In this document: positions 1-15,435 of the stretch, one piece after another
How the letters are laid out: every line of letters begins with the position of its first letter
Position numbering within the stretch: position 1 is the first letter of the stretch
Virus record (IMG/VR): IMGVR_UViG_2778261395_000001
Length of the DNA stretch: 15,435 nt
Strand: one strand, 5' to 3'
From: a virus
Lineage: Duplodnaviria; Heunggongvirae; Uroviricota; Caudoviricetes
The notes under the pieces: model-generated
What the model was told of the DNA's origin: nothing
What the model saw: the letters and a program-made list of their open reading frames with translations, nothing else
The model's database searches: none
Translations under genes and position numbers: made by a program

Positions 1-77
1 AGCTGATAGAAACAGAAGCCACTGGAGCACCTCAAAAACACCATCATACACTAAATCAGTAAGTTGGCAGCATCACC
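1..77 (-). mobile_element. insA: IS1 left end (IRL plus first codons of insA), continuing beyond the window start
   Basis: Reverse complement of 1..77 reads GGTGATGCTGCCAACTTACTGATTTAGTGTATGATGGTGTTTTTGAGGTGCTCCAGTGGCTTCTGTTTCTATCAGCT, which I recognise as the IS1 terminus; GTGGCTTCTGTTTCTATCAGC encodes MASVSIS, the InsA N-terminus. The inverted repeat lies at 55..77. Confidence 0.8.
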
Positions 78-431
78 CTGAACGGCATGAAAAATATCAT
101 TCTGATCATTGCATTTACTGACAAAACCGTTAGCACCAGCTTGTATCGCTCTGCCAGCATAAAAGCATTCTGATTTCGATGATAAAAATAACACTTTCAC
201 TGTGCTCTGGATTTGTTTGATCCTTTTCAGGAAGGTAAAACCGTCTGTTCCGGGCAAGTCTATATCCATAATGATTAAATCAACAGGACGGGTTCGGAGA
301 TAATCGATGGTTATGCGGTAATCATCCGTTTTCAGGACAATCTGCAATTCACTGTTTTTTTGCAACGGAACTTCAATAGACATTCTGATGATAGGATGAG
401 TATCCATAATGATCACCGACGTTGGTTTCAT
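51..431 (-). pseudogene. fimZ: fimZ response regulator, receiver domain only (codons 1-118 at 78..431), 3' part displaced by IS1; frame runs 8 codons into IS1 to a stop at 51..53
   Basis: Translation from the ATG at 429..431 gives MKPTSVIIMDTHPIIRMSIEV...DIFHAVQ, a CheY-like receiver domain matching FimZ from memory. No LuxR-type HTH domain follows; the sequence switches to IS1 at position 77. Confidence 0.75.
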
Positions 432-614
432 AGTTGCCAGTCTCATAGGAGCGGACAATTTTCCGTTAGGGCGGTAAATTGTACTTTGATACATGAAAAT
501 ACGGGTTTTCTTGATTCAGACGCGCAGCGGTGTGCGTTTGTTTGCCACTATAGCGAAATAAATCAGAAAATCAGACGCGGTCGTTCACTTGTTCAGCAAC
601 CAGATCAAAAGCCA

Positions 615-642
615 TTGACTCAGCAAGGGTTGACCGTATAAT
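615..642 (+). promoter_or_regulatory. Candidate sigma70 promoter for argU (TTGACT, 16-nt spacer, TATAAT)
   Basis: Consensus -35 at 615..620 and -10 at 637..642, about 30 nt upstream of the mature tRNA 5' end. Confidence 0.5.
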
Positions 643-673
643 TCACGCGATTACACCGCATTGCGGTATCAAC

Positions 674-750
674 GCGCCCTTAGCTCAGTTGGATAGAGCA
701 ACGACCTTCTAAGTCGTGGGCCGCAGGTTCGAATCCTGCAGGGCGCGCCA
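674..750 (+). tRNA. argU: tRNA-Arg, anticodon UCU
   Basis: GCGCCCTTAGCTCAGTTGGATAGAGCAACGACCTTCTAAGTCGTGGGCCGCAGGTTCGAATCCTGCAGGGCGCGCCA: 7-bp acceptor stem GCGCCCT/AGGGCGC, anticodon loop CTTCTAA with TCT at positions 3-5, T-arm GGTTCGAATCC, 3' CCA encoded. Confidence 0.9.
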
Positions 751-765
751 TTACAATTCAATCAG

Positions 766-1929
766 TTACGCCTTCTTTATATCCTCCATAATTCCAGAGT
801 GGGACATATTTGGGACATTATCACCAAAAATGTCGTCTATTTTCCTCGCATGCTCTGTCAAATGATTAGGCGCAAGGTGAGCATACCTACGAACCATTTC
901 TATGGACTCCCATCCGCCCATTTCCTGAAGCACTGATAATGGGACGCCTGACTGAATCAGCCAGCTTGCCCAGGTGTGTCTGAGGTCATGGAAACGGAAA
1001 TCTTCAATTCCTGCACGACGACAAGCTGATAGCCATGATGTCTTGCTGTCGATGCGCATCTTCCTGACCGCAGGCGTTGATGTTCCATCTGCTCGCTTAG
1101 CCGCCTTGGTATGTACAAACACCCATTTGTGATGCTTGCCTATTTGATCACGCAACACTTTACAGGCGGTATCGTTCAGCGCCACACCAATGGCGCGGTT
1201 TGATTTGCTCTCTTCTGGATTCACCCAGGCAACTCGTCGCTGCATGTCGATTTGTTGCCATTCCAGATTTATGATGTTCGACTTTCTCAGACCAGTTGCC
1301 AGCGCAAACTTGACGACAGATTTCAGTGGTTCGGGGCACTCATCAATAAGGCGTTTTGCTTCCTCCTTTTCCAGCCATCTGACTCGCTTGTTTCTGACCG
1401 CTGGTATCTTGATGACAGGCGCTTTTTCCAGCCACTTCCAGTCGCGTTCTGCAGCACGGAGAATGGCCTTTATCATGGCAAGATGCTTTGCCTTTGTCTG
1501 AGTTGATACTGGCTTTGGTTCATAAACAGGCAGTTCTTTACCTTTCCTGATGGCGGCCTGAACTTTCTGTTTCCATATTTCTTTCGTCTTTCTGTTATGC
1601 ATTCTGCTTACAGCAGAGTAAATCTTTGCCTCCGAGATATCTTTAAGCCTTATACCCTCAAAATGTTCAAGCCAGAACTCAATCCGGCTTTTATCTGAAT
1701 CGAGAGATTTTTTATCAGCTTTTTCCTCAAGCCATCTTAGGCAGGCCTCTTCAAAAGTGACATCAGGTAAATCCCCTAGCTTTTCTACTCGCCAGAGTTC
1801 TGCTTTTCGCTTGTCGTGCAACTCCTGAGCTTGCCGCTTGTCCTTTGTGCCAAGAGATTCCTTAATTCGTTTCCCGCCCGGGAGCGAATACGAGGCATAC
1901 CATATTTCATTTCTGCGGAAGAGTGACAT
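766..1929 (-). CDS. intD: Tyrosine-recombinase prophage integrase, 387 aa
   Basis: Complete ORF directly next to the tRNA 3' end; C-terminus carries the catalytic signature [11 protein letters not shown]...VRRYAHL (R..H-x-x-R..Y). Confidence 0.9.
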
Positions 1930-2156
1930 TTTCTTTCCTCTGTTATGCCATCACCCGCGCTCACCTGGACAGTATGCAGCGGAGACTGAAGCGCCGCAAT
2001 GCAGGCTTGCCGTGTTGTGAGGTAAGGAGATTTTGGCTTGGTTGGATCTTTACGTGTTGCCTGTAGGCGGCCTGTTCGTATCCAGTTGGTGGCGGTTGGT
2101 CTGGATATCTTAAGAAACTGACAGGCCTCATCGAGTGTGAGGCTGTATGATTCCAT
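1785..2156 (-). CDS. xisD: Excisionase-like HTH protein (Xis/AlpA-like); the 3' extension overlapping int is of doubtful significance
   Basis: [31 protein letters not shown] has a helix-turn-helix character; ATG at 2156 follows an AGAGGT ribosome-binding site; sits immediately upstream of int. The frame stays open 145 nt into int, so the functional length is uncertain. Confidence 0.5.
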
Positions 2157-2406
2157 GGTTACCTCTGCTTTTTGAACGCATGTCACGTAACTTCTTAATG
2201 TGTTCTGCCGTTTCGATCTCTTCTGCTATCCGATCTGCATCAGCTTTATTCACAGGTTCAAAGTCATGATTAAAGCGGAACATGCTGGCGATACATGTTC
2301 TGCCTTTTCGGATGTAGTGAACTTTGTTGTGGGTAGAACGCAGGATTTTGCAGGGAGTGCCGTGGTGGTCGACGTACCAGGTGTTAGGCAAAATGATTCT
2401 GAACAT
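2128..2406 (-). CDS. Hypothetical prophage early-left protein, 92 aa
   Basis: ORF with a GAGGTG ribosome-binding site 6 nt upstream of the ATG; same strand and tight spacing with neighbours. No motif recognised. Confidence 0.45.
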   Translation of the reverse strand: MFRIILPNTWYVDHHGTPCKILRSTHNKVHYIRKGRTCIASMFRFNHDFEPVNKADADRIAEEIETAEHIKKLRDMRSKSRGNHGIIQPHTR

Positions 2407-2453
2407 TTTTACACCTCAGTTGGACGATGTTGAAATTTGCTGCTTTGAGGCCA

Positions 2454-2672
2454 TCACAATCCCCATTGTTTGTTCTTAAGTTCGATCTCCTCCTGGCAGC
2501 TTGCACAAGTCCGACAACCCTGAACGGCCAGGCGTCTTCGTTCATCTATGGGATCGCCACACTCACAACAATGAGTGGCAGATATAACCTGGTGGTTCAG
2601 ACGACGCATTTTTATTGCTGTATTGCGCTGTAATTCTTCGATTTCTGATGCTGAATCAATGATGTCTGCCAT
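2454..2672 (-). CDS. TraR/DksA-family C4 zinc-finger protein, 72 aa
   Basis: Cys pairs CxxC ... CxxC in ...THCCECGDPIDERRRLAVQGCRTCASCQEE..., typical of phage TraR-like proteins. Confidence 0.55.
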   Translation of the reverse strand: MADIIDSASEIEELQRNTAIKMRRLNHQVISATHCCECGDPIDERRRLAVQGCRTCASCQEEIELKNKQWGL

Positions 2673-2770
2673 CTTCCATTAATCCCTGAATTGTTGGTTA
2701 ATACGCTTGAGGGTGAATGCGAATAATAAAAAAGGAGCCTGTAGCTCCCTGATGATTTTGCTTTTCATGT

Positions 2771-3085
2771 TCATCGCTCCTTAAAGACGCCGTTTAACAT
2801 GCCGATCGCCAGGCTTAAATGAGTCGGTGTGAATCCCATCAGCGTTACCGTTTCGCGGTGCTTCTTCAGTACGCTACGGCAAATGTCATCGACGTTTTTA
2901 TCCGGAAACTGCTGTCTGGCTTTTTTGATTTCAGAATTAGCCTGACGGGCTATGCTGCGAAGGGCGTTTTCCTGCTGAGGTGTCATTGAACAAGTCCCAT
3001 GTCGGCAAGCATAAGCACACAGAATATGAAGCCCGCTGCCAGAAAAATGCATTCCGTGGTTGTCATGCAGCCTCCCGACGGGCAA
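2771..3085 (-). CDS. Hypothetical small phage protein; start uncertain (ATG at 3085, or internal ATG at 2986 giving 71 aa)
   Basis: Open frame on the early-left strand; no recognisable motif; upstream part overlaps the 3' end of the Dam-like ORF. Confidence 0.35.
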   Translation of the reverse strand: MPVGRLHDNHGMHFSGSGLHILCAYACRHGTCSMTPQQENALRSIARQANSEIKKARQQFPDKNVDDICRSVLKKHRETVTLMGFTPTHLSLAIGMLNGVFKER

Positions 3086-3428
3086 GAATCCTTGAGCCGA
3101 ACGCCATCAACTCTCCACGATCAACGGTCGTAAAGTGGCAGTGTGTACGGGGGTATGGGTGCCAGATAATGAGCATCGAGCCTTTATTATTTCCACTGAC
3201 GTGTTTCCCGGTGAGTGGGTTAATAAATGCCAGTCGTCCTGCCGTGATGAATCTGACCTCACTGGCGGTTTGTATCGCTTCATGAAACCATCCGACAGAT
3301 GTGTCAGCAGGTAATAACATTACACATCCCACACTGCTGAATTTGTTTTCAGTGGCTGCCTTTTTCACAAAAGGGGAAATATTGCTGTATGGTGGATTCA
3401 ACCAGACATAACCAGAGGCATATCCCAT
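3063..3428 (-). pseudogene. Phage Dam-like DNA N6-adenine methyltransferase, 5'-truncated fragment
   Basis: NPPY catalytic motif (WLNPPY, nt 3387..3398) followed by LLPADTSVGWFHEAI and EVRFITAGRLAFINPLTG, resembling the phage Dam family. An in-frame stop lies two codons upstream of the first ATG, with no ribosome-binding site or expected N-terminal region. Confidence 0.55.
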
Positions 3429-3438
3429 TGCTTACTGG

Positions 3439-3675
3439 TTGGTTACCAACTTGTACCAGAACATGCGGGCCAATGCGCTGACTGACGCGGAATTACGGCG
3501 CAAGGCTGCCGATGAACTGTCCTGTATGACCGCGCGAATTAACCGTGGTGAGGCGATACCTGAACCAGTAAAACAACTTCCTGTCATGGGCGGTAGACCT
3601 CTAAATCGTGCACAGGCTCTGGCGAAGATCGCAGAAATCAAAGCTAAGTTCGGACTGAAAGGATCAAGTGTATGA
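3439..3675 (+). pseudogene. C-terminal fragment of a lambda P-like replication protein (P')
   Basis: Frame opens after a stop at 3409..3411 with no ATG; ends ...LAKIAEIKAKFGLKGSSV, overlapping the ren start (ATGA), as lambda P does. Identification is from gene order and recalled C-terminal similarity. Confidence 0.5.
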
Positions 3676-3974
3676 CGGGCAAAGAGGCAATTATTCATTA
3701 CCTGGGGACGCATAAGAGCTTCTGTGCACAGGACGTTGCCGCGGTAACAGGTGCAACCGTAACCAGCATAAATCAGGCTGCGGCTAAAATGGCGCGGGCA
3801 GGAATCCTGGTCGTTGATGGTAAGGTCTGGCGAACGGTGTATTACCGGTTCGCTACCAGAGAAGAACGGGAAGGAAAGGTGAGCACGAATCTGATTTTTA
3901 AGGAGTGTCGCCAGAGTGCCGCGATGAAACGGGTACTGAGGGTATATAAAAGAACATCAATGGGAACACAATGA
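3672..3974 (+). CDS. renD: Ren-like protein (lambda Ren homolog), 100 aa
   Basis: MTGKEAIIHYLGTH..FC..DVAA.TGATVTSINQAAAKMARAG..V..GKVWRTVYYRFATREEREGK.STNL.FKECRQSAAMKRVL is close to lambda Ren as I recall it. Confidence 0.8.
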   Translation: MTGKEAIIHYLGTHKSFCAQDVAAVTGATVTSINQAAAKMARAGILVVDGKVWRTVYYRFATREEREGKVSTNLIFKECRQSAAMKRVLRVYKRTSMGTQ

Positions 3975-3991
3975 TGAAACAGGTGAGTTGA

Positions 3992-4026
3992 GTTCAAACT
4001 GTAGTACAATTCTCTCCAGTTTGAAC
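3992..4026 (+). promoter_or_regulatory. Perfect 10-bp stem hairpin (GTTCAAACTG, 15-nt loop, CAGTTTGAAC) immediately upstream of the emrE ribosome-binding site
   Basis: Read directly; lies at the ren/emrE boundary. No T-run follows, so not a classic intrinsic terminator. Confidence 0.4.
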
Positions 4027-4041
4027 AGGAAAGAATATGCT

Positions 4042-4374
4042 ATGAACCCTTATATTTATCTTGGTGGTGCAATACTTGCAGAGGTCATTGGTACAACCTT
4101 AATGAAGTTTTCAGAAGGTTTTACACGGTTATGGCCATCTGTTGGTACAATTATTTGTTATTGTGCATCATTCTGGTTATTAGCTCAGACGCTGGCTTAT
4201 ATTCCTACAGGGATTGCTTATGGTATCTGGTCAGGAGTCGGTATTGTCCTGATTAGCTTACTGTCATGGGGATTTTTCGGCCAACGGCTGGACCTGCCAG
4301 CCATTATAGGCATGATGTTGATTTGTGCCGGTGTGTTGGTTATTAATTTATTGTCACGAAGCACACCACATTAA
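4042..4374 (+). CDS. emrE: Small multidrug resistance (SMR) efflux transporter EmrE, 110 aa
   Basis: MNPYIYLGGAILAEVIGTTLMKFSEGFTRLWPSVG...LLSRSTPH matches EmrE; conserved membrane-embedded Glu14 present; four hydrophobic segments. Confidence 0.9.
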   Translation: MNPYIYLGGAILAEVIGTTLMKFSEGFTRLWPSVGTIICYCASFWLLAQTLAYIPTGIAYGIWSGVGIVLISLLSWGFFGQRLDLPAIIGMMLICAGVLVINLLSRSTPH

Positions 4375-4404
4375 AATAATTTGTTTCTAAACGACTAAAA
4401 TATG

Positions 4405-4447
4405 GAGGCTCTTATATTTATATGAGCCTCGTTTTATGCTTTTTGTT
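4405..4447 (+). terminator. Intrinsic terminator after emrE
   Basis: Stem GAGGCTC / GAGCCTC with an AT loop, followed by GTTTTATGCTTTTTGTT. Confidence 0.55.
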
Positions 4448-4628
4448 AATGTCTTTATTTTTTATGTATTCTTTTGTGCTTTCAAGATTATGGCGTAAGA
4501 AAATTGCAATACGATTATTGTTGTATATTCAAGATAATGTGACCTTAATTGTCTTTTTAAATAAAAATTAAACAAAAATTATATCCCACCACTAAGGTTT
4601 ATAAAAGCATACGTTAGCAGGTGTCACC

Positions 4629-6155
4629 ATGAAAAAAGCCATAGCATATATGCGATTTTCATCACCAGGTCAGATGTCTGGCGACTCATTAAACCGACAG
4701 AGAAGACTTATTGCTGAATGGTTAAAGGTAAATAGTGATTATTATCTTGATACCATAACATATGAAGATTTAGGATTAAGTGCATTCAAAGGAAAGCATG
4801 CACAATCAGGAGCTTTTTCGGAATTTTTAGATGCTATAGAGCATGGTTATATATTGCCAGGAACTACATTGTTAGTTGAAAGTCTGGACAGACTTTCAAG
4901 AGAAAAAGTCGGTGAAGCGATTGAACGTCTGAAATTGATTTTGAATCACGGTATTGATGTTATAACTCTTTGCGACAATACAGTCTATAATATTGACTCT
5001 TTGAATGAGCCATATTCATTAATAAAAGCCATACTTATAGCACAAAGGGCAAATGAAGAAAGCGAGATAAAGTCAAGTCGGGTTAAATTATCATGGAAGA
5101 AAAAACGGCAGGATGCACTGGAATCAGGTACGATTATGACGGCGTCTTGTCCGAGATGGCTCTCCTTAGATGACAAAAGAACGGCTTTTGTTCCAGACCC
5201 CGACAGGGTGAAAACTATTGAGCTAATTTTTAAACTCAGGATGGAAAGGCGCTCATTGAATGCAATAGCCAAGTATTTAAATGATCATGCTGTAAAGAAT
5301 TTCTCAGGAAAAGAAAGTGCATGGGGACCTTCTGTAATTGAAAAATTATTAGCGAATAAAGCTCTGATAGGTATATGCGTACCTTCATATCGTGCAAGAG
5401 GGAAAGGGATAAGTGAAATCGCTGGCTATTATCCCAGAGTCATATCAGATGATTTGTTTTACGCTGTACAGGAAATTCGGTTGGCACCTTTTGGTATTAG
5501 CAATAGTAGCAAGAATCCTATGCTAATAAATCTACTTCGAACAGTTATGAAGTGTGAGGCTTGTGGTAATACCATGATTGTTCATGCGGTATCTGGAAGT
5601 TTGCATGGCTATTATGTTTGTCCGATGAGAAGATTACATCGATGTGACAGGCCATCAATAAAAAGAGATTTGGTTGATTATAATATCATTAATGAATTGC
5701 TTTTTAATTGTAGCAAAATTCAACCAGTTGAAAACAAGAAAGATGCTAATGAAACTTTAGAGTTAAAAATTATTGAGCTTCAGATGAAAATTAATAATTT
5801 AATCGTTGCATTGTCTGTCGCGCCTGAAGTTACCGCTATAGCAGAGAAAATAAGACTATTAGATAAGGAATTACGAAGGGCTTCGGTATCATTGAAAACT
5901 TTGAAGAGTAAAGGTGTAAATTCATTCAGTGATTTTTATGCTATTGACTTAACCAGTAAAAATGGACGAGAGTTATGCCGTACACTTGCCTATAAAACAT
6001 TCGAAAAAATCATAATTAATACGGATAATAAAACCTGTGATATCTATTTTATGAATGGCATTGTTTTTAAACACTATCCTTTAATGAAAGTAATATCCGC
6101 CCAGCAGGCGATAAGTGCTCTCAAATATATGGTTGATGGTGAGATTTATTTCTAA
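4629..6155 (+). CDS. ybcK: Large serine recombinase (resolvase-type catalytic domain, recombinase domain, zinc ribbon), 508 aa
   Basis: N-terminal AYMRFSSPGQ...R motif typical of serine recombinases; C-terminal CEACGN...YYVCP Cys cluster; AGGTG ribosome-binding site; AT-rich codon usage. Confidence 0.8.
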   Translation: MKKAIAYMRFSSPGQMSGDSLNRQRRLIAEWLKVNSDYYLDTITYEDLGLSAFKGKHAQSGAFSEFLDAIEHGYILPGTTLLVESLDRLSREKVGEAIERLKLILNHGIDVITLCDNTVYNIDSLNEPYSLIKAILIAQRANEESEIKSSRVKLSWKKKRQDALESGTIMTASCPRWLSLDDKRTAFVPDPDRVKTIELIFKLRMERRSLNAIAKYLNDHAVKNFSGKESAWGPSVIEKLLANKALIGICVPSYRARGKGISEIAGYYPRVISDDLFYAVQEIRLAPFGISNSSKNPMLINLLRTVMKCEACGNTMIVHAVSGSLHGYYVCPMRRLHRCDRPSIKRDLVDYNIINELLFNCSKIQPVENKKDANETLELKIIELQMKINNLIVALSVAPEVTAIAEKIRLLDKELRRASVSLKTLKSKGVNSFSDFYAIDLTSKNGRELCRTLAYKTFEKIIINTDNKTCDIYFMNGIVFKHYPLMKVISAQQAISALKYMVDGEIYF

Positions 6156-6619
6156 ATAATGATCTCGGATTTTAAGTTATGCTATGGTGATAAAGTGCAA
6201 GACAGAATTAATTATCTTTGACGAAACTTAATGGGTAATTACTTTGTTTGCTCCCACAAGCGAGTTTTGTACGGCTGTATTGGGGTAGTAAATGAGCTAT
6301 ACAATCTTAATCATTTGTTAGGTGAGAACTCTTGGTCGCAGATTCAAATACTGAAAATACGTGACAAATTATTATGAGCAAAATGGTGTATGTCACGTAT
6401 TTTGAATGGTAGGTTAAAAAATAACACCGACTTTCGTAGGTATTACTAATAATAAAGCAGAGTTTTTAGATAGTATCAATGTGCTTTGTGTATATTGTGG
6501 CAAATAATTGGGTTGGGGGTACAATTGTGATTGCTTTTGCATGAACATTGCGCCTTTATGCATAATGAGATAAAGGAATATCAAATAAAATAACGATAGG
6601 TCATAACAAAGAGGTTTTT

Positions 6620-7171
6620 ATGAAAACACTTATCGTTTCAACTGTATTGGCATTCATAACATTTTCTGCGCAGGCTGCAGCATTTCAGGTCACTAGTAAT
6701 GAAATAAAAACAGGAGAGCAACTTACAACGTCTCATGTCTTTTCTGGATTTGGGTGTGAAGGTGGTAATACATCGCCCTCATTAACCTGGTCTGGTGTTC
6801 CTGAAGGTACCAAAAGCTTTGCCGTAACTGTATATGATCCAGATGCACCTACAGGCAGTGGTTGGTGGCATTGGACTGTTGTTAATATTCCAGCAACAGT
6901 AACATATTTGCCCGTTGATGCAGGGAGACGTGATGGAACAAAACTGCCGACTGGTGCTGTTCAAGGCCGAAATGATTTTGGCTATGCTGGGTTTGGTGGC
7001 GCATGTCCTCCTAAAGGAGATAAACCACATCATTACCAGTTTAAAGTATGGGCTCTAAAAACTGAAAAGATTCCTGTAGATTCTAACTCCAGCGGAGCGT
7101 TAGTTGGTTATATGCTTAATGCTAATAAAATCGCAACCGCTGAGATAACACCAGTTTATGAGATAAAGTAG
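6620..7171 (+). CDS. ybcL: Periplasmic PEBP/RKIP-family protein (YbcL-like) with signal peptide, 183 aa
   Basis: Signal peptide MKTLIVSTVLAFITFSAQA; PEBP-like core motifs DPDAP and HHY; AGAGGT ribosome-binding site. Confidence 0.8.
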   Translation: MKTLIVSTVLAFITFSAQAAAFQVTSNEIKTGEQLTTSHVFSGFGCEGGNTSPSLTWSGVPEGTKSFAVTVYDPDAPTGSGWWHWTVVNIPATVTYLPVDAGRRDGTKLPTGAVQGRNDFGYAGFGGACPPKGDKPHHYQFKVWALKTEKIPVDSNSSGALVGYMLNANKIATAEITPVYEIK

Positions 7172-7180
7172 GGTGAGAGT

Positions 7181-7978
7181 ATGCTGGCAAGAGGTAAGAC
7201 TAACTTAAAGATCGAAGAAATACGGATGCATAAACATCATGAGATTCATAGGGTTAAGCCTCTTATGCCAGCTTTGTGTCGTATCCGTCAGGGAAAGAAA
7301 GTTATCAATTGGGAGACGCATACTTTAACTGTTGATAATAATCAAATAATATTATTTCCTTGTGGTTATGAATTTTATATTGAGAATTATCCTGAAGCAG
7401 GGCTTTATCTTGCAGAAATGCTTTACTTACCCATTGATTTAATTGAGAGTTTCCAAAAACTTTATACGGTAACTGATCAAATACGTAACAAAACAAGTTT
7501 CTTTTTACCTCAGAATCCTGAGTTAATATATTGTTGGGAGCAACTAAAAACATCTGTTTCCCGAGGCTTCTCAACTAAAATTCAGGAGCACTTAGCAATG
7601 GGCGTTCTACTATCGTTAGGAGTGAATCATGTTAATCATTTACTTTTATCATATAGTAAACAATCATTGATAAGTCGTTGTTATAACCTGCTGCTATCCG
7701 AACCCGGCACAAAATGGACAGCAAACAAGGTTGCTCGATATCTCTACATTTCTGTTTCTACATTACATCGCCGTCTAGCAAGCGAGGGGGTAAGTTTCCA
7801 AAGTATACTGGACGATGTGAGGTTAAATAATGCGTTGTCTGCTATACAAACGACGGTAAAACCTATAAGCGAGATTGCCAGAGAAAATGGTTATAAGTGT
7901 CCTTCTCGTTTTACTGAAAGATTTCATAATCGTTTTAATATAACACCAAGAGAGATAAGAAAAGCTTCCAGAGAGTAA
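7181..7978 (+). CDS. ybcM: AraC/XylS-family transcriptional regulator, 265 aa
   Basis: C-terminal AraC-type HTH region (...[33 protein letters not shown]...[15 protein letters not shown]); starts 10 nt after ybcL, so probably co-transcribed. Confidence 0.75.
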
Positions 7979-8042
7979 AAGTGTTTTAAGAAGGAGCAAT
8001 TCTATCGATTTTGATTTTGGGAAATCAACACGGCATAATTAT

Positions 8043-8080
8043 GTCACCGGAGCCTGAACAACTCCGGTGACTTCTGCGCT
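8043..8080 (+). terminator. Hairpin with perfect 10-bp stem (GTCACCGGAG / CTCCGGTGAC) followed by TTCTGCGCT; possible terminator after ybcM
   Basis: Read directly; the T-tract is weak, so terminator function is uncertain. Confidence 0.4.
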
Positions 8081-8094
8081 AAACGGGGACGTTT

Positions 8095-8196
8095 ATGCGC
8101 ACATACAATCCAAACTCTCTTCTCCCTTCACAGATGCAGAAATGCACCTGCAATTCTTTGCATCTAGCGTTTGACCTCTGCGGAGGTGAAGCGTGA
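8095..8196 (+). CDS. ylcH: Small ORF, 33 aa (ylcH-like), stop overlapping the ybcN start
   Basis: [33 protein letters not shown]; coding status not demonstrable from sequence alone. Confidence 0.3.
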
Positions 8197-8648
8197 ACCT
8201 CTCACAAGACGGCATCAAATTACATCGCGGCAACTTCACCGCTATCGGTCGGCAGATCCAGCCTTATCTGGAGGAGGGCAAATGCTTTCGCATGGTGCTT
8301 AAACCGTGGCGTGAGAAACGCAGTCTTTCCCAGAATGCACTCAGCCACATGTGGTACAGCGAAATCAGTGAATACCTCATCAGCAGGGGTAAAACGTTCG
8401 CCACTCCAGCTTGGGTAAAAGATGCTCTCAAACACACATATCTCGGTTATGAAACCAAAGACCTGGTTGATGTCGTAACCGGTGATATCACCACTATCCA
8501 GTCGTTACGCCATACCTCCGACCTTGATACCGGAGAGATCTATGTCTTCCTGTGTAAGGTTGAAGCCTGGGCGATGAATATTGGCTGCCACCTGACTATT
8601 CCGCAGAGCTGCGAGTTCCAGCTGCTGCGTGATAAGCAGGAGGCGTAA
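8193..8648 (+). CDS. ybcN: NinB-family phage protein (YbcN-like), 151 aa, GTG start
   Basis: Complete ORF starting at a GTG after GGAGGTG; first gene of a tightly overlapping nin-type operon. Confidence 0.75.
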
Positions 8649-8818
8649 TGGCTACACCGCTTATTCGTGTCATGAACGGACACATCTACAAAGTACCAAA
8701 TCGTCGTAAGCGTAAGCCTGAGCTGAAACCATCCGAAATACCAACACTGCTCGGATATACCGCCAGCCTGGTTGATAAAAAATGGTTGCGACTGGCAGCA
8801 AGGAGGAATCATGGCTGA
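8648..8818 (+). CDS. ninE: NinE-like small protein, 56 aa
   Basis: [37 protein letters not shown]...; start overlaps the ybcN stop (TAATG). Confidence 0.65.
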   Translation: MATPLIRVMNGHIYKVPNRRKRKPELKPSEIPTLLGYTASLVDKKWLRLAARRNHG

Positions 8819-9101
8819 TTTGAGAAAAGCAGCGCGTGGTCGGGAATGCCAGGTAAGAATCCCTGGCGTATGTAATGGCAATCCTGAAACGTCTGTACTG
8901 GCACATATCCGGCTGGCTGGATTGTGCGGTACCGGTATCAAACCGCCAGACCTGATTGCCACCATTGCATGTTCTGCCTGTCACGACGAGATCGACCGTC
9001 GCACGCATTTTGTTGACGCTGGATATGCAAAAGAATGCGCGCTGGAAGGTATGGCGAGAACGCAGGTTATCTGGCTGAAAGAGGGGGTAATTAAGGCGTG
9101 A
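8811..9101 (+). CDS. ybcO: Cys-rich nin-region protein (YbcO-like, putative nuclease), 96 aa
   Basis: [42 protein letters not shown]...[13 protein letters not shown] with conserved Cys/His cluster; AGGAGG ribosome-binding site. Confidence 0.7.
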
Positions 9102-9460
9102 ATACCTACAATATCACATTACCCTGGCCGCCGAGCAATAATCGCTATTACCGCCATAATCGCGGGCGCACGCACATCAGCGCAGAGGGGCAGGCATACC
9201 GCGAAAACGTCGCCCGAATCATTAAAAACGCAATGCTGGATATCGGCCTGGCTATGCCTGTGAAAATCCGCATTGAGTGTCACATGCCGGATCGCCGTCG
9301 CCGTGACCTGGATAATCTACAAAAGGCCGCTTTTGACGCACTCACCAAAGCAGGTTTCTGGCTGGATGATGCTCAGGTCGTTGATTACCGCGTTGTGAAG
9401 ATGCCGGTTGTCAAAGGTGGAAAGCTGGAACTGACCATCACTGAACAGGGAGATGAATGA
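9098..9460 (+). CDS. rusA: Holliday junction resolvase RusA, 120 aa
   Basis: [36 protein letters not shown]...[31 protein letters not shown] matches RusA with catalytic Asp residues. Confidence 0.9.
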
Positions 9461-9597
9461 TGTTTGAGTTTTATATGGCAGAACTTCTTCGCCACCGCTG
9501 GATGCGCCTGCGCTTATATCGTTTCCCCGGTTCTGTTTTGACCGATTACCGAATACTGAAGAATTACGCCAAAACACTGACAGGAGCAGGAGTATGA
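9457..9597 (+). CDS. ylcG: Small nin-region ORF, 46 aa (ylcG-like)
   Basis: [46 protein letters not shown]; start overlaps the rusA stop. Confidence 0.4.
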
Positions 9598-9682
9598 AGT
9601 CAGAGATAACAATCAACTAATACTGTTTTGTTGATTTTTGCTTGTAATTGGCGTTCTGGTCTGAGTTTTGTGGAGTAAGTTG

Positions 9683-10066
9683 ATGCGTGATATTCAGATG
9701 GTTCTTGAGCGTTGGGGAGCGTGGGCGGCTAATAATCATGAAGATGTGACCTGGTCGTCCATTGCCGCCGGTTTTAAGGGATTAATTCCTTCAAAAGTAA
9801 AATCTCGCCCACAATGTTGTGACGATGACGCGATGATCATTTGCGGGTGCATGGCCCGTCTGAAAAAGAACAACAGCGATTTGCATGATTTATTAGTAGA
9901 TTATTATGTAGTCGGTATGACATTCATGTCACTGGCAGGTAAGCATTGCTGCTCTGATGGTTATATCGGGAAAAGGTTACAGAAGGCTGAGGGCATAATT
10001 GAAGGGATGTTAATGGCATTAGATATCCGGTTAGAGATGGATATCGTTGTTAATAACTCTAATTAA
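9683..10066 (+). CDS. quuD: Late-gene antiterminator Q-like protein, 127 aa
   Basis: [24 protein letters not shown]...[16 protein letters not shown]... with Cys-rich zinc-binding region; GGAGTAAG ribosome-binding site; sits at the end of the nin region where Q is expected. Confidence 0.8.
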
Positions 10067-10255
10067 TATGCCAATTGTTTACTAAAAATTATTAAAAATG
10101 GGGCGTTGAGACGCCCCCAAAAATAAAGGGTAATATATAACAGAAGGTTTATATAGTTAGAAGCAAGGTTGTGCTTCTAAAGGAAGTGGCTTGAGGGAGC
10201 CACTTATATGTTGGGGAGGCAAAGCCTCCCGCAACATATCTTTTTCGTAATCAGA
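10067..10255 (+). promoter_or_regulatory. Hairpin-rich region downstream of Q: candidate late promoter/qut/terminator, including a near-perfect ~15-bp palindrome (10208..10241) followed by CTTTTT
   Basis: Stems GGGGCG/CGCCCC (10098..10115), GTGGCT/AGCCAC, and ATATGTTGGGGAGGC-AAA-GCCTCCCGCAACATAT, then a T-run. Functions are inferred from position only. Confidence 0.35.
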
Positions 10256-11338
10256 TTAGAACTGATACACCAGACCTACAGCGACGATGTCGTCGGTATC
10301 AATACCAGCTGTTTTGGTAAACTTACTATCGTCAATTAAGTTGATTTTGTAATCAACAAAAGTGGACATGTTTTTATTAAAGTAGTAAGTAGCACCGACA
10401 TCGACATACTTGACTAAGTCTCGGTCACCATGAACACCAAGGTCTTTACCTTTTGACTGAAGGTAAGCAACAGATGGTCGCAGACCGAAGTCAAACTGAT
10501 ATTGTGCTACTGCTTCAAAGTTTTGTGCTTTGTTTGCAATATGGTTATTACCAAAAACGGTCATATTCTGAGTTTCAGAATATGTGGTAGCCAGATAGAT
10601 ATTGTTCGCATCATATTTCAGGCCTGCAGCCCATACTTCCGCATTTTTGCCGGAGGCATTGAATTTGCTCTTACCATAGGCGACCTGACCGTCAGTGCGA
10701 TCTGATTTAGCATAGGTTGCACCCACGCCGAATCCTTCATACTCATAAGTAGTGGAGAAACCGAAACCATCACCATTGGCTTCAGTTACGTCAGTGCGGT
10801 CATTTTTACCCTGATACTGAGCAGCAAAGTTCAGGCCATCGACCAGACCAAAGAAGTCGTTGTTACGATAGGTTGCAACACCAGTGGTGCGACCAGTCAT
10901 GAACACATCTGTTTGGGTCCAGGTATCGCCACCGAATTCTGGCAGAACGTCAGTCCACGCACCGATGTCGTATGCTACACCGTAGTTACGGCCGTAATCG
11001 ATTGAGCCGTAGTCACCGAATTTCAGGCCTGCAAATGCAAGACGGGTTTTGTCTTTGGAGGAACCTTGAGATTCAGCGCGGTTGCCTTTGAATTCATATT
11101 CCCACTGACCGAAACCAGTCAGTTGATCGTTGATTTGGGTTTCACCTTTGAAGCCAAGACGGGCATAAGTAGTATCACCATCATCTGCATCGTTAGAGGA
11201 AAAGTAGTGCTTGGCATTAACTTTCCCGTACAGATCCAGCTTGTTACTGTCTTTATTATAAATTTCAGCTGCCTGAGCAGACATCGCCATCAGTACTGAT
11301 GCAGCTACAGCAGAAATTGCCACTGTTAATTTTTTCAT
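10256..11338 (-). CDS. nmpC: Outer-membrane general porin (OmpC/OmpD/NmpC family), apparently intact, 360 aa
   Basis: Signal peptide [23 protein letters not shown], then [17 protein letters not shown]...; ends with the porin C-terminal signature ...VAVGLVYQF. Confidence 0.9.
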
Positions 11339-11926
11339 CGTGAGCCCTTTTTTTTGAACTATTATTAAAAAATGATGTCACTGCGCGATAAATATTCATC
11401 TAATCAATGTGATTATTTCAAGATGTAAGTTTTAGTTTCTCATTTAATTTGTGAAGTAGATCTCTATTTTTATCTGAACTTTTTCTATCGAAACCTATTT
11501 ATGGCTCTTATTTGAACAAAAATAAACCTATTAGCTAATTTATATTAATGGCTGTTATTTATGGGGGTTCTATAATTCAGTGGTTTAATTTAAATCAACT
11601 AAAAATAACGCCGGAAATTATTTATTGGTTATTTGTTGAGGTTTTCTTATATATTTGTGGTGGTGTTTTGAACACTCGGTAGCATTCTCATAAATATCAT
11701 TCAGTGGTTTACGTACGTAAAAAATTGGTTATGCTGTTAAGAGTGGTTACTTCGTCACACAGCTTAAACCCGCCGTCGAGCTGGTTTTTCCATTTTTTGA
11801 GTCTCGATATTAGCTGATAACTCAATACCTGAGTTATTCACTGACTCCGAGTCTGTTACGTTTCTGCTTTTTTGCGATACGTTGTATTCCCTCAATTTAC
11901 ACCCGCTTTGTCTGCGAGGTGGGGTT

Positions 11927-12142
11927 ATGAAATCCATGGATAAGTTAACAACGGGTGTCGCCTATGGCACCTCAGCAGGTAGTGCCGGTTACTGGTTTTT
12001 ACAGCTGCTCGATAAAGTCACGCCCTCACAGTGGGCAGCAATAGGTGTGCTGGGTAGCCTGGTATTTGGCCTGCTGACGTACCTGACAAACCTTTATTTC
12101 AAGATTAAAGAAGATAAGCGCAAGGCTGCGAGAGGTGAATAA
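11927..12142 (+). CDS. essD: Phage 21-type pinholin (S21-like) with dual-start motif MKSM, 71 aa
   Basis: [71 protein letters not shown]: two transmembrane segments; Met1 and Met4 give antiholin and holin starts; GAGGTGGGG ribosome-binding site. Confidence 0.85.
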
Positions 12143-12639
12143 TGCCTCCATCATTACGAAAAGCCGTTGCTGCTGCTATTGGTGGCGGAGCAATTGCTAT
12201 AGCATCAGTGTTAATCACTGGCCCAAGTGGTAACGATGGTCTGGAAGGTGTCAGCTACATACCATACAAAGATATTGTTGGTGTATGGACTGTATGTCAC
12301 GGGCATACAGGAAAAGACATCATGCTCGGTAAAACGTATACCAAAGCAGAATGCAAAGCCCTCCTGAATAAAGACCTTGCCACGGTCGCCAGACAAATTA
12401 ACCCGTACATAAAAGTTGATATACCGGAAACAACGCGCGGCGCTCTTTACTCGTTCGTTTACAACGTGGGCGCTGGCAATTTCAGAACATCGACGCTTCT
12501 TCGCAAAATAAACCAGGGCGATATCAAAGGCGCATGTGATCAGCTACGTCGCTGGACATATGCTGGCGGTAAGCAATGGAAAGGTCTCATGACTCGTCGT
12601 GAGATTGAGCGTGAAATCTGTTTGTGGGGTCAGCAATGA
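12142..12639 (+). CDS. rrrD: SAR (signal-arrest-release) endolysin / lysozyme, 165 aa
   Basis: Gly/Ala-rich weakly hydrophobic N-terminal domain ([20 protein letters not shown]), then lysozyme catalytic region ...[23 protein letters not shown]...; start overlaps the essD stop (TAATG). Confidence 0.85.
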
Positions 12640-13096
12640 ACAGAGTAACCGCGATTATCTCCGCTCTGGTTATCTGCATCATCGTCTGCCTGTCATGGGC
12701 TGTTAATCATTACCGTGATAACGCCATTACCTACAAAGCCCAGCGCGACAAAAATGCCAGAGAACTGAAGCTGGCGAACGCGGCAATTACTGACATGCAG
12801 ATGCGCCAGCGTGATGTTGCTGCACTGGATGAAAAATACACGAAGGGTTAGCTAATGCGAAAGCTGAAAATGATGCTCTGCGTGATGATGTTGCCGCTGG
12901 TCGTCGTCGGTTGCACATCAAAGCAGTCTGTCAGTCAGTGCGTGAAGCCACCACCGCCTCCGGCGTGGATAATGCAGCCTCCCCCCGACTGGCAGACACC
13001 GCTGAACGGGATTATTTCACCCTCAGAGAGAGGCTGATCACTATGCAAAAACAACTGGAAGGAACCCAGAAGTATATTAATGAGCAGTGCAGATAG
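12636..13096 (+). pseudogene. rzpD: Rz-like inner-membrane spanin interrupted by a -1 frameshift near 12845..12850
   Basis: N-terminal part ([21 protein letters not shown]...DEKYTKG, stop at 12849..12851) is in frame 0; the remaining Rz-like sequence (..[29 protein letters not shown]...INEQCR, ending 13096) is in frame 2. Confidence 0.7.
12855..13037 (+). CDS. rzoD: Rz1-like outer-membrane lipoprotein spanin, 60 aa, embedded in the Rz region
   Basis: MRKLKMMLCVMMLPLVVVGCTSK... with lipobox VVGC and Pro-rich mature part (PPPPPAW..PPPDW). Confidence 0.7.
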   Translation: MRKLKMMLCVMMLPLVVVGCTSKQSVSQCVKPPPPPAWIMQPPPDWQTPLNGIISPSERG

Positions 13097-13121
13097 AGCT
13101 GCCCATATCGATGGGCAACTC
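13095..13121. terminator. Hairpin between convergent Rz and borD (GAGCTGCCCAT-ATCG-ATGGGCAACTC)
   Basis: Stem of about 11 bp with one mismatch, positioned between the two convergent stop codons. Confidence 0.45.
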
Positions 13122-13127
13122 ATGCAA

Positions 13128-13421
13128 TTATTGTGAGCAATACACACGCGCTTCCAGCGGAGTATAAATGCCTAAAGTAATAAAACCGAGCAATCCATTT
13201 ACGAATGTTTGCTGGGTTTCTGTTTTAACAACATTTTCTGCGCCGCCACAAATTTTGGCTGCATCAACAGTTTTCTCCTGTCCAATTCCCGAAACGAAGA
13301 AGTGATGGGTGATGGTTTCCTTTGGTGTTACTGCTGTCGGTTTGTTTCCAACAGTAAACGTCTGTTGAGCACATCCTGTAATAAGCATTGCCAGAGCGGC
13401 AGAAAACAACATTTTTTTCAT
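13128..13421 (-). CDS. borD: Bor-family outer-membrane lipoprotein (lambda Bor / Iss homolog), 97 aa
   Basis: MKKMLFSAALAMLITGCAQQ... with lipobox LITGC; start taken at the internal Met that begins the signal peptide. Confidence 0.85.
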   Translation of the reverse strand: MKKMLFSAALAMLITGCAQQTFTVGNKPTAVTPKETITHHFFVSGIGQEKTVDAAKICGGAENVVKTETQQTFVNGLLGFITLGIYTPLEARVYCSQ

Positions 13422-13781
13422 CTTATTATCCTGCATTGTTAAAAACGGCAGAATCCTATGTGACAACAATTAAACGATAGTTAAATGGATTGATGAAAAT
13501 TAAAACTATATAGGTGGATGCTCAGCCTATTGGAGGAGGGGGGGCACTCAGAATCCTGTGGAATGAAATAAACCGCTCTTTCTGTCCATTACCCTTTTAG
13601 CTGCGCTGTATCGTCGCCGTATTCCCGCATTAACCATGACCGTAGCCCGACGGGGAATTCCTTCTGCGTGAGTGTGCGGGAATAATCAAAAACGATGCAC
13701 ACCGGGTTTTACTGTGCTGACAGACGCAGGGTTACCCTCATAGTCGCTTTTCCGGTGCGATGGTGGAAGAAACCGGGATGT

Positions 13782-13976
13782 TTATTCATCATCACTCTGG
13801 ATTGATGTATATGCTCTCTTTTCTGACGTTAGTCTCCGACGGCAGGCTTCAATGACCCAGGCTGAGAAATTCCCAGACCCTTTTTGCTCAAGAGCGATGT
13901 TAATTTGTTCAATCATTTGGTTAGGAAAGCGGATGTTGCGGGTTGTTGTTCTGCGGGTTCTGTTCTTAGTTGACAT
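13782..13976 (-). CDS. Small basic protein with ribbon-helix-helix-like pattern, 64 aa (ylcI-like)
   Basis: MSTKNRTRRTTTRNIRFPNQMIEQINIALEQKGSGNFSAWVIEACRRRL...: a short beta-strand then amphipathic helices, as in Arc/CopG-type folds. Fold assignment is inference. Confidence 0.45.
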   Translation of the reverse strand: MSTKNRTRRTTTRNIRFPNQMIEQINIALEQKGSGNFSAWVIEACRRRLTSEKRAYTSIQSDDE

Positions 13977-14139
13977 GAGGTTGCCCCGTATTCAGTGTCG
14001 CTGATTTGTATTGTCTGAAGTTGTTTTTACGTTAAGTTGATGCAGATCAATTAATACGATACCTGCGTCATAATTGATTATTTGACGTGGTTTGATGGCG
14101 TAGATGCACGTTGTGACATGTAGATGATAATTATTATCA

Positions 14140-15435
<1,296 letters not shown>

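Follow-up and report, generated by a model that had tools for sequence, protein, structure and literature searches.

An IS1 end truncates fimZ after codon 118 beside argU in an Escherichia coli contig with a DLP12-like cryptic prophage

Does the shortened fimZ frame at the left end of this DNA encode a receiver-only regulator, or is it what is left of a gene broken by IS1, and how did the allele arise? We addressed these questions in the window, the whole 15,435-nucleotide stretch of DNA analysed here, which is a complete short-read contig with repeats at its bounds. The window encodes a fimZ remnant and not the FimZ regulator. The kind of lesion is commonplace and the allele itself is private: IS1-mediated pseudogenisation of a cryptic regulator.

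Translation and base-by-base comparison showed that the minus-strand frame beginning at the ATG at 429..431 matches K-12 FimZ for 118 codons. Over the corresponding nucleotides (fimZ nt 1-354, window 431..78), 352 of 354 positions were identical to K-12 fimZ; the two differences were a T to C change at nt 65, giving L22P, and a synonymous change at nt 114. IS1 sequence begins at fimZ nt 355, window position 77. Read in reverse, window 1..77 matched nt 1-77 of the complete 768-bp IS1A of strain B19374 at 77 of 77 positions (blastn E = 6.7e-36). This minus-strand segment is the left end of an IS1A-type element, with the terminal inverted repeat IRL, GGTGATGCTGCCAACTTACTGAT, at 77..55. Past the junction the fimZ frame reads eight IS1-coded codons, GDAANLLI (77..54), and stops at a TAG at 53..51, giving a truncated ORF at 51..431 (minus strand) with a product of 126 aa. 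The earlier note had described a fimZ frame normal for 118 codons, an IS1 terminal inverted repeat reached at position 77 and eight IS1-derived codons ahead of the stop; each of these points held, and its coordinates were all correct. The last nine fimZ base pairs before the element, CTGAACGGC (78..86; fimZ nt 346-354, codons 116-118), are an IS1 target that flanks a full IS1 on both sides in B19374.

IS1 is 768 bp long, makes its InsAB' transposase by a -1 frameshift, and carries a weak promoter, PIS1, that overlaps IRL (PMC12428005). A promoter-like match to the IS1 hexamers was seen on the minus strand of the window at 70..43. A twin contig, NNZA01000061.1 (GCA_002487245.1), was identical to the window across all 10,431 bases compared. 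Its IS1 tail runs 8 nt further and matched nt 1-85 of the complete IS1A at 85 of 85 positions; the two contigs thus break inside IS1 at nt 77 (window) and nt 85 (twin), as expected of a multicopy or collapsed repeat.

Orthology to FimZ is indicated by nucleotide identity to K-12 and by synteny, the latter on the argU side only. The fimZ-argU intergenic region (432..673), which lies upstream of fimZ, was unchanged by comparison with HCM-26C-1, a genome with intact fimZ; from 78 to 2644 the window was identical to HCM-26C-1 except at position 367. Beyond this region lies argU (674..750, plus strand; ARAGORN and K-12 annotation), the tRNA-Arg(UCU) gene and attachment site of DLP12-type prophages. 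It is followed by intD (766..1929, minus strand; ORF list and annotation of the closest genome), the integrase and first gene of a DLP12-like cryptic prophage. The prophage takes up the remainder of the window, whose right end lies in a lambda-J-like tail gene. Identity to K-12 was 99.6% over 78..2024. Leaving the IS1 end aside, window 78..15435 shared 99.97% identity with E. coli PCP07083 over 15.3 kb, with four differing positions, and identity to HCM-26C-1, E. coli B, E. coli C and ATCC 8739 was approximately 99.9-100%. These matches mark the source as an ordinary E. coli.

K-12 MG1655 fimZ (b0535) is intact and encodes a 210-aa orphan NarL/FixJ-family regulator of the sfm cluster with a GerE helix-turn-helix (HTH) domain. 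The window retains 117 of its 118 N-terminal residues unchanged and, on the argU side, shares the argU/DLP12 neighbourhood of K-12. Pfam comparison placed the receiver domain Response_reg (PF00072) at residues 6-118 of the 126-aa product (95.4 bits, profile positions 1-111 of 111). The LuxR-type HTH domain, GerE (PF00196), was found at residues 149-204 of the intact allele only, and Pfam returned no GerE/LuxR-type HTH in the 126-aa product. This finding and the stop at 53..51 bear out the earlier proposal that the C-terminal LuxR-type DNA-binding domain is missing. The accompanying description of a receiver-only FimZ fragment stood in part: a full Response_reg match without an HTH is present, but the cut lies inside the putative helix alpha5 and the receiver carries L22P.

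The placement of that cut comes from an alignment with EvgA, in which the conserved segment extends past the last Pfam profile position, where the product is cut. We infer that the segment beyond the cut is helix alpha5 and that the cut falls inside it. The substituted leucine, L22, aligned with a conserved leucine of EvgA and lies in predicted helix alpha1. Loss of the end of alpha5 together with L22P indicates, at the sequence level, that the receiver is compromised. An AlphaFold2 model of the 126-aa fragment, made from the single sequence without an alignment, had a mean pLDDT of 38.6, and no structural conclusion was drawn from it. A further in-frame ATG (492..494) lies 63 nt before the annotated start of fimZ and opens a mechanical ORF of 147 aa (51..494, minus strand), for which no gene was on record in the public collection; the start at 431 is the one used in the K-12 annotation of fimZ.

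The allele is strain-specific, as the earlier note had held by comparison with K-12. A 60-mer spanning the junction was found in 0 of 5,426 complete E. coli genomes, while the uninterrupted fimZ site was present in 4,216 of them, with two places on plasmid records, and the K-12 gene is whole. By exact-product look-up, the 126-aa product was found on only two public contigs, one of 15,435 bp, taken to be the window itself, and the twin NNZA01000061.1. The base change behind L22P (window position 367, minus strand) is also private when compared with K-12 and HCM-26C-1: the exact 60-mer containing it was absent from every one of the 4,206 complete genomes in which this segment is present. Exact-pattern scans of species-representative genomes and JGI metagenomes did not find the junction, a result of little weight, as these collections are unlikely to hold the strain. 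The predicted opposite junction (IRR, then 0-20 nt, then the fimZ 3' flank) was likewise absent from species-representative genomes and JGI metagenomes, again with little weight. A search for the displaced 3' half of fimZ through its 92-aa ORF was not diagnostic, since this ORF occurs on 177-223 contigs of many strains. The presence of two hits in one gene was considered as a sign of selection and rejected; with four differences from PCP07083 in 15.3 kb, one in fimZ is unremarkable.

What such a lesion can affect depends on what fimZ controls in E. coli. The suggestion that type 1 fimbrial regulation is affected was not upheld: E. coli fimZ belongs to sfmACDHF, and the type 1 fimbriae of E. 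coli are encoded elsewhere and switched by fimB/fimE (PMC3604780, PMC2408971). The sfmACDHF cluster is the orthologue of the Salmonella fim cluster and is patchy and partly inactivated in E. coli; it is present in about 65% of surveyed genomes, absent from phylogroup B2 and partly inactivated elsewhere, and sfmA carries a donor-strand deletion (PMC3604780). The fimZ locus of Salmonella enterica is orthologous, with the same gene order next to tRNA-Arg, fimU corresponding to argU (PMC3604780). In that species FimZ activates type 1 fimA together with FimY and FimW. The Salmonella cluster encodes functional type 1 fimbriae, whereas E. coli sfm is cryptic or defective (PMC3604780, PMC2408971).

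For K-12, Ogawa 2022 (Genes Cells 27:657), as relayed in PMC12711010 and PMC12471899, describes two roles of FimZ: activation of the sfm operon, which depends on phosphorylation, and an effect on cell elongation that is independent of phosphorylation and runs through contact with the ATP synthase alpha subunit. The same relayed account calls FimZ the only orphan response regulator in E. coli, and it has no known kinase (PMC12471899). A product lacking the DNA-binding domain cannot be expected to activate the sfm fimbrial promoter. Judged from its coding sequence, the allele is null for transcriptional activation under any of the structural scenarios considered below, and its effect would be that a cryptic fimbrial operon is no longer inducible. 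Given that sfm is, in E. coli, a cryptic cluster already in decay, we assume that the lesion is probably neutral.

IS1 has struck this gene repeatedly. In complete genomes other than the window's, with insertion points mapped onto K-12 coordinates, at least 10 independent IS1 events were found in fimZ. The mapped alleles are IS1-associated matches in complete E. coli genomes to a 700-bp query that includes the IS1 end. Among the comparable alleles inside fimZ, 7 of 10 were simple insertions with 8-9-bp duplications and 3 of 10 were deletions of the sfm operon. Simple insertions were seen in 2EC1 (fimZ nt 25-33, target duplication AGTATCCAT), N9 (nt 70-77, TTTTTTTG), FAHZZU6014 (IS1F; nt 272-280, TGCCAGCAT), JCC-EE7 (IS1B; nt 277-285, CGCTCTGCC), the ETEC1703 group (nt 392-400, AGTTAAGCG) and 14EC047 (nt 490-497, GATAATCC); another, in LR-21-1, lies in the fimZ-argU spacer (GCCACTATA). 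A match on NZ_CP137697.1 (128.8 kb) equalled that of JCC-EE7 (NZ_CP101922.1) in span, identity, score and listed features, the latter including the IS1B transposase, the split fimZ and tRNA-Arg.

The deletion alleles showed no duplication. In PCP07083 fimZ nt 383 is joined to the folD-sfmA spacer, in TUM9757 nt 484 is joined to the same spacer, and in the 63-2 group nt 599 is joined just past sfmA; in EC2641 sfm is lost, also without a duplication, and fimZ is intact. In PCP07083, TUM9757 and the 63-2 group an IS1 end adjoins the 5' fimZ remnant near argU, as in the window, but the break points (nt 383, 484 and 599) differ from the window's and the operon is gone beyond IS1. The PCP07083 element (L012, 1704..2471) lies in the opposite orientation to the window's and 29 bp further into fimZ, and the whole sfm operon is deleted.

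Two genomes, B19374 (NZ_CP142915.1) and ECSD228 (NZ_CP150075.1), have a full 768-bp IS1A at the same target as the window, CTGAACGGC. This sequence is duplicated on the two sides of the element and both fimZ halves are kept. Their 5' remnant also ends at codon 118, in a gene that RefSeq labels as a 'response regulator' pseudogene. The element is oriented oppositely, with IRR facing the 5' half where the window has IRL, and the event is therefore independent of the window's. Unlike the window, neither genome carries L22P or a DLP12-type prophage at argU, and envY follows the tRNA gene.

FimZ fragments of 73-199 aa were numerous in the same 90%-identity clusters, from Shigella sonnei and from E. 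coli drafts, which points to frequent disruption of fimZ or contig breaks within it. These fragments have other end points, and none carries the fusion tail ...HAVQGDAANLLI. The GC content of fimZ is 36.7%, and in 100-nt windows it ranges from 0.26 to 0.43, compared with 0.45-0.62 in the adjacent sfmF. IS1 is said to prefer AT-rich DNA, a preference attributed to Galas, Calos and Miller in 1980 and to Zerbib et al. in 1985. Some independent IS1 ends in fimZ form close pairs, at nt 272/277, 346/346, 383/392 and 484/490. An IS1 hot spot was considered and rejected: four pairs within 10 nt compare with about 1.8 expected, which is not significant (p about 0.1) by a rough Poisson estimate on a sample biased by the query.

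How, then, did the window's allele arise? The event would have been transposition of an IS1A-type element into the 9-bp fimZ target CTGAACGGC, with the IRL end towards the 5' half. On balance we favour a simple insertion of a full IS1, for which we infer the full length, the duplication and a retained 3' half. This is our best guess because simple insertions outnumber deletions by seven to three among the mapped alleles and because B19374 provides a precedent at the same site. A full 768-bp element would then be followed by a second copy of CTGAACGGC on its far side, and the fimZ 3' half and sfmACDHF would be retained on another contig. That far side is predicted to read from sfmF through the fimZ 3' half, ...GGAGAGGATCAT, to CTGAACGGC and then GGTAATGACTCCAAC..., with the IRR end of IS1 joined to ...GGATCATCTGAACGGC. 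The lesion may be one more step of pseudogenisation, helped by an AT-richness of fimZ that IS1 favours.

An IS1-flanked deletion is a serious rival, though a less likely one. It would have removed the fimZ 3' half with some or all of sfmACDHF, leaving neither a duplication nor a displaced 3' half; either an adjacent deletion made by IS1 or recombination of one IS1 copy with another could have produced it. Three independent alleles of this kind exist in complete genomes (those of PCP07083, TUM9757 and the 63-2 group), EC2641 has lost sfm with fimZ intact, all these alleles, like the window, retain the 5' part of fimZ that lies nearest argU, and one of them belongs to PCP07083, which is nearly identical to the window over 15.3 kb. 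However, the mapped alleles include roughly two simple insertions for every deletion, and the same 9-bp site was taken by one in B19374. Direct derivation from the PCP07083 allele was rejected: its IS1 has the wrong orientation for an adjacent deletion, and an inversion route is implausible. The latter consideration also weakens the improbable case of a rearrangement, in which IS1 recombined with another copy, or transposed intramolecularly with inversion, and the other half of the gene was displaced or inverted. Partners for such an event would be plentiful, as the median number of places matched by the 700-bp query with the IS1 end was 10 in the genomes of the E. coli collection; large IS-mediated rearrangements are documented (PMC11708052), and in PCP07083 an IS1 of opposite orientation lies just 29 bp from the window's site. 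Inversion from a PCP07083-like state would nevertheless need inverted IS1 copies about 30 bp apart, an arrangement expected to be unstable. An assembly artefact, with a chimeric IS1 tail on the contig and a fimZ that is really intact, is scarcely credible. Mis-joins can arise at the extreme ends of short-read contigs, which is where the junction lies, but it is present on two NCBI contigs (15,265 and 15,435 bp), and the break coincides exactly with the first base of IRL and with a 9-bp site used by IS1 in B19374; a chimera is unlikely to respect an IS terminus.

A functional receiver-only protein is a very doubtful alternative to a plain remnant. The 126-aa fragment would be expressed and act without DNA binding; it is equally doubtful that it serves as a phosphate sink, as a dominant-negative partner or in the ATP synthase alpha subunit-linked activity of FimZ. 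Its upstream region is identical to that of the intact allele, the entire Pfam receiver profile is kept, including the region of the phospho-acceptor Asp, and FimZ is described as having a second, phosphorylation-independent protein-protein activity (Ogawa 2022, as relayed in PMC12471899). Against this, the cut probably falls inside alpha5, a boundary taken from the EvgA comparison, L22P puts a proline at the conserved alpha1 leucine, and FimZ is an orphan without a known kinase (PMC12471899). The allele is also confined to two contigs, with no sign of spread or selection, and does not represent a conserved family. We give as little credence to a reading in which the fragment keeps a DNA-binding-independent activity, in which CTGAACGGC is a true IS1 hot spot with repeatedly selected loss of the regulator, or both. 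If true, a fragment made from an untouched promoter would titrate a phosphodonor or partner, or would retain the phosphorylation-independent cell-elongation activity.

As a plain remnant, the allele may be seen as a single strain-specific step in the decay that the cryptic sfm/fimZ fimbrial locus is undergoing in E. coli. For annotators, the relevant point is that the 633-bp, AT-rich fimZ has been struck by IS1 at least 10 times, through insertions and through deletions that remove the operon. Given these recurrent lesions, pieces of fimZ that lie at the edge of a contig should be taken neither for novel single-domain regulators nor for a defect in type 1 fimbriation.

The prophage in the window differs from K-12 DLP12, which has IS3 in renD and IS5 in nmpC; both elements are missing here. 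A ren ORF (3672..3974, plus strand) and a 360-aa NmpC/OmpC-type porin (10256..11338, minus strand) are accordingly intact. The segment at 2025..3431 is absent from K-12 DLP12 and encodes a DUF4222 protein, a TraR/DksA zinc-finger protein, a truncated Dam-type methylase and a truncated replication protein P. The window also departs from PCP07083 by a single base in ybcM (7612) and another in ybcN (8540). K-12 and PCP07083 have the same base at 7612, which sets the window apart from both; comparison with K-12 returned no match at 8540. The Rz-type spanin gene rzpD (12636..13097, plus strand) has a 1-bp deletion at about 12846 relative to PCP07083, and the resulting frameshift leads to a stop after 70 aa, which reflects either a real pseudogene or a sequencing error. 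At the right end (14882..15435) the window stops inside the lambda-J-like 'phage tail tip' gene, of which a further 1.2 kb is present in PCP07083. The tail tip region is probably a repeat common to prophages, which would explain the end of the contig.
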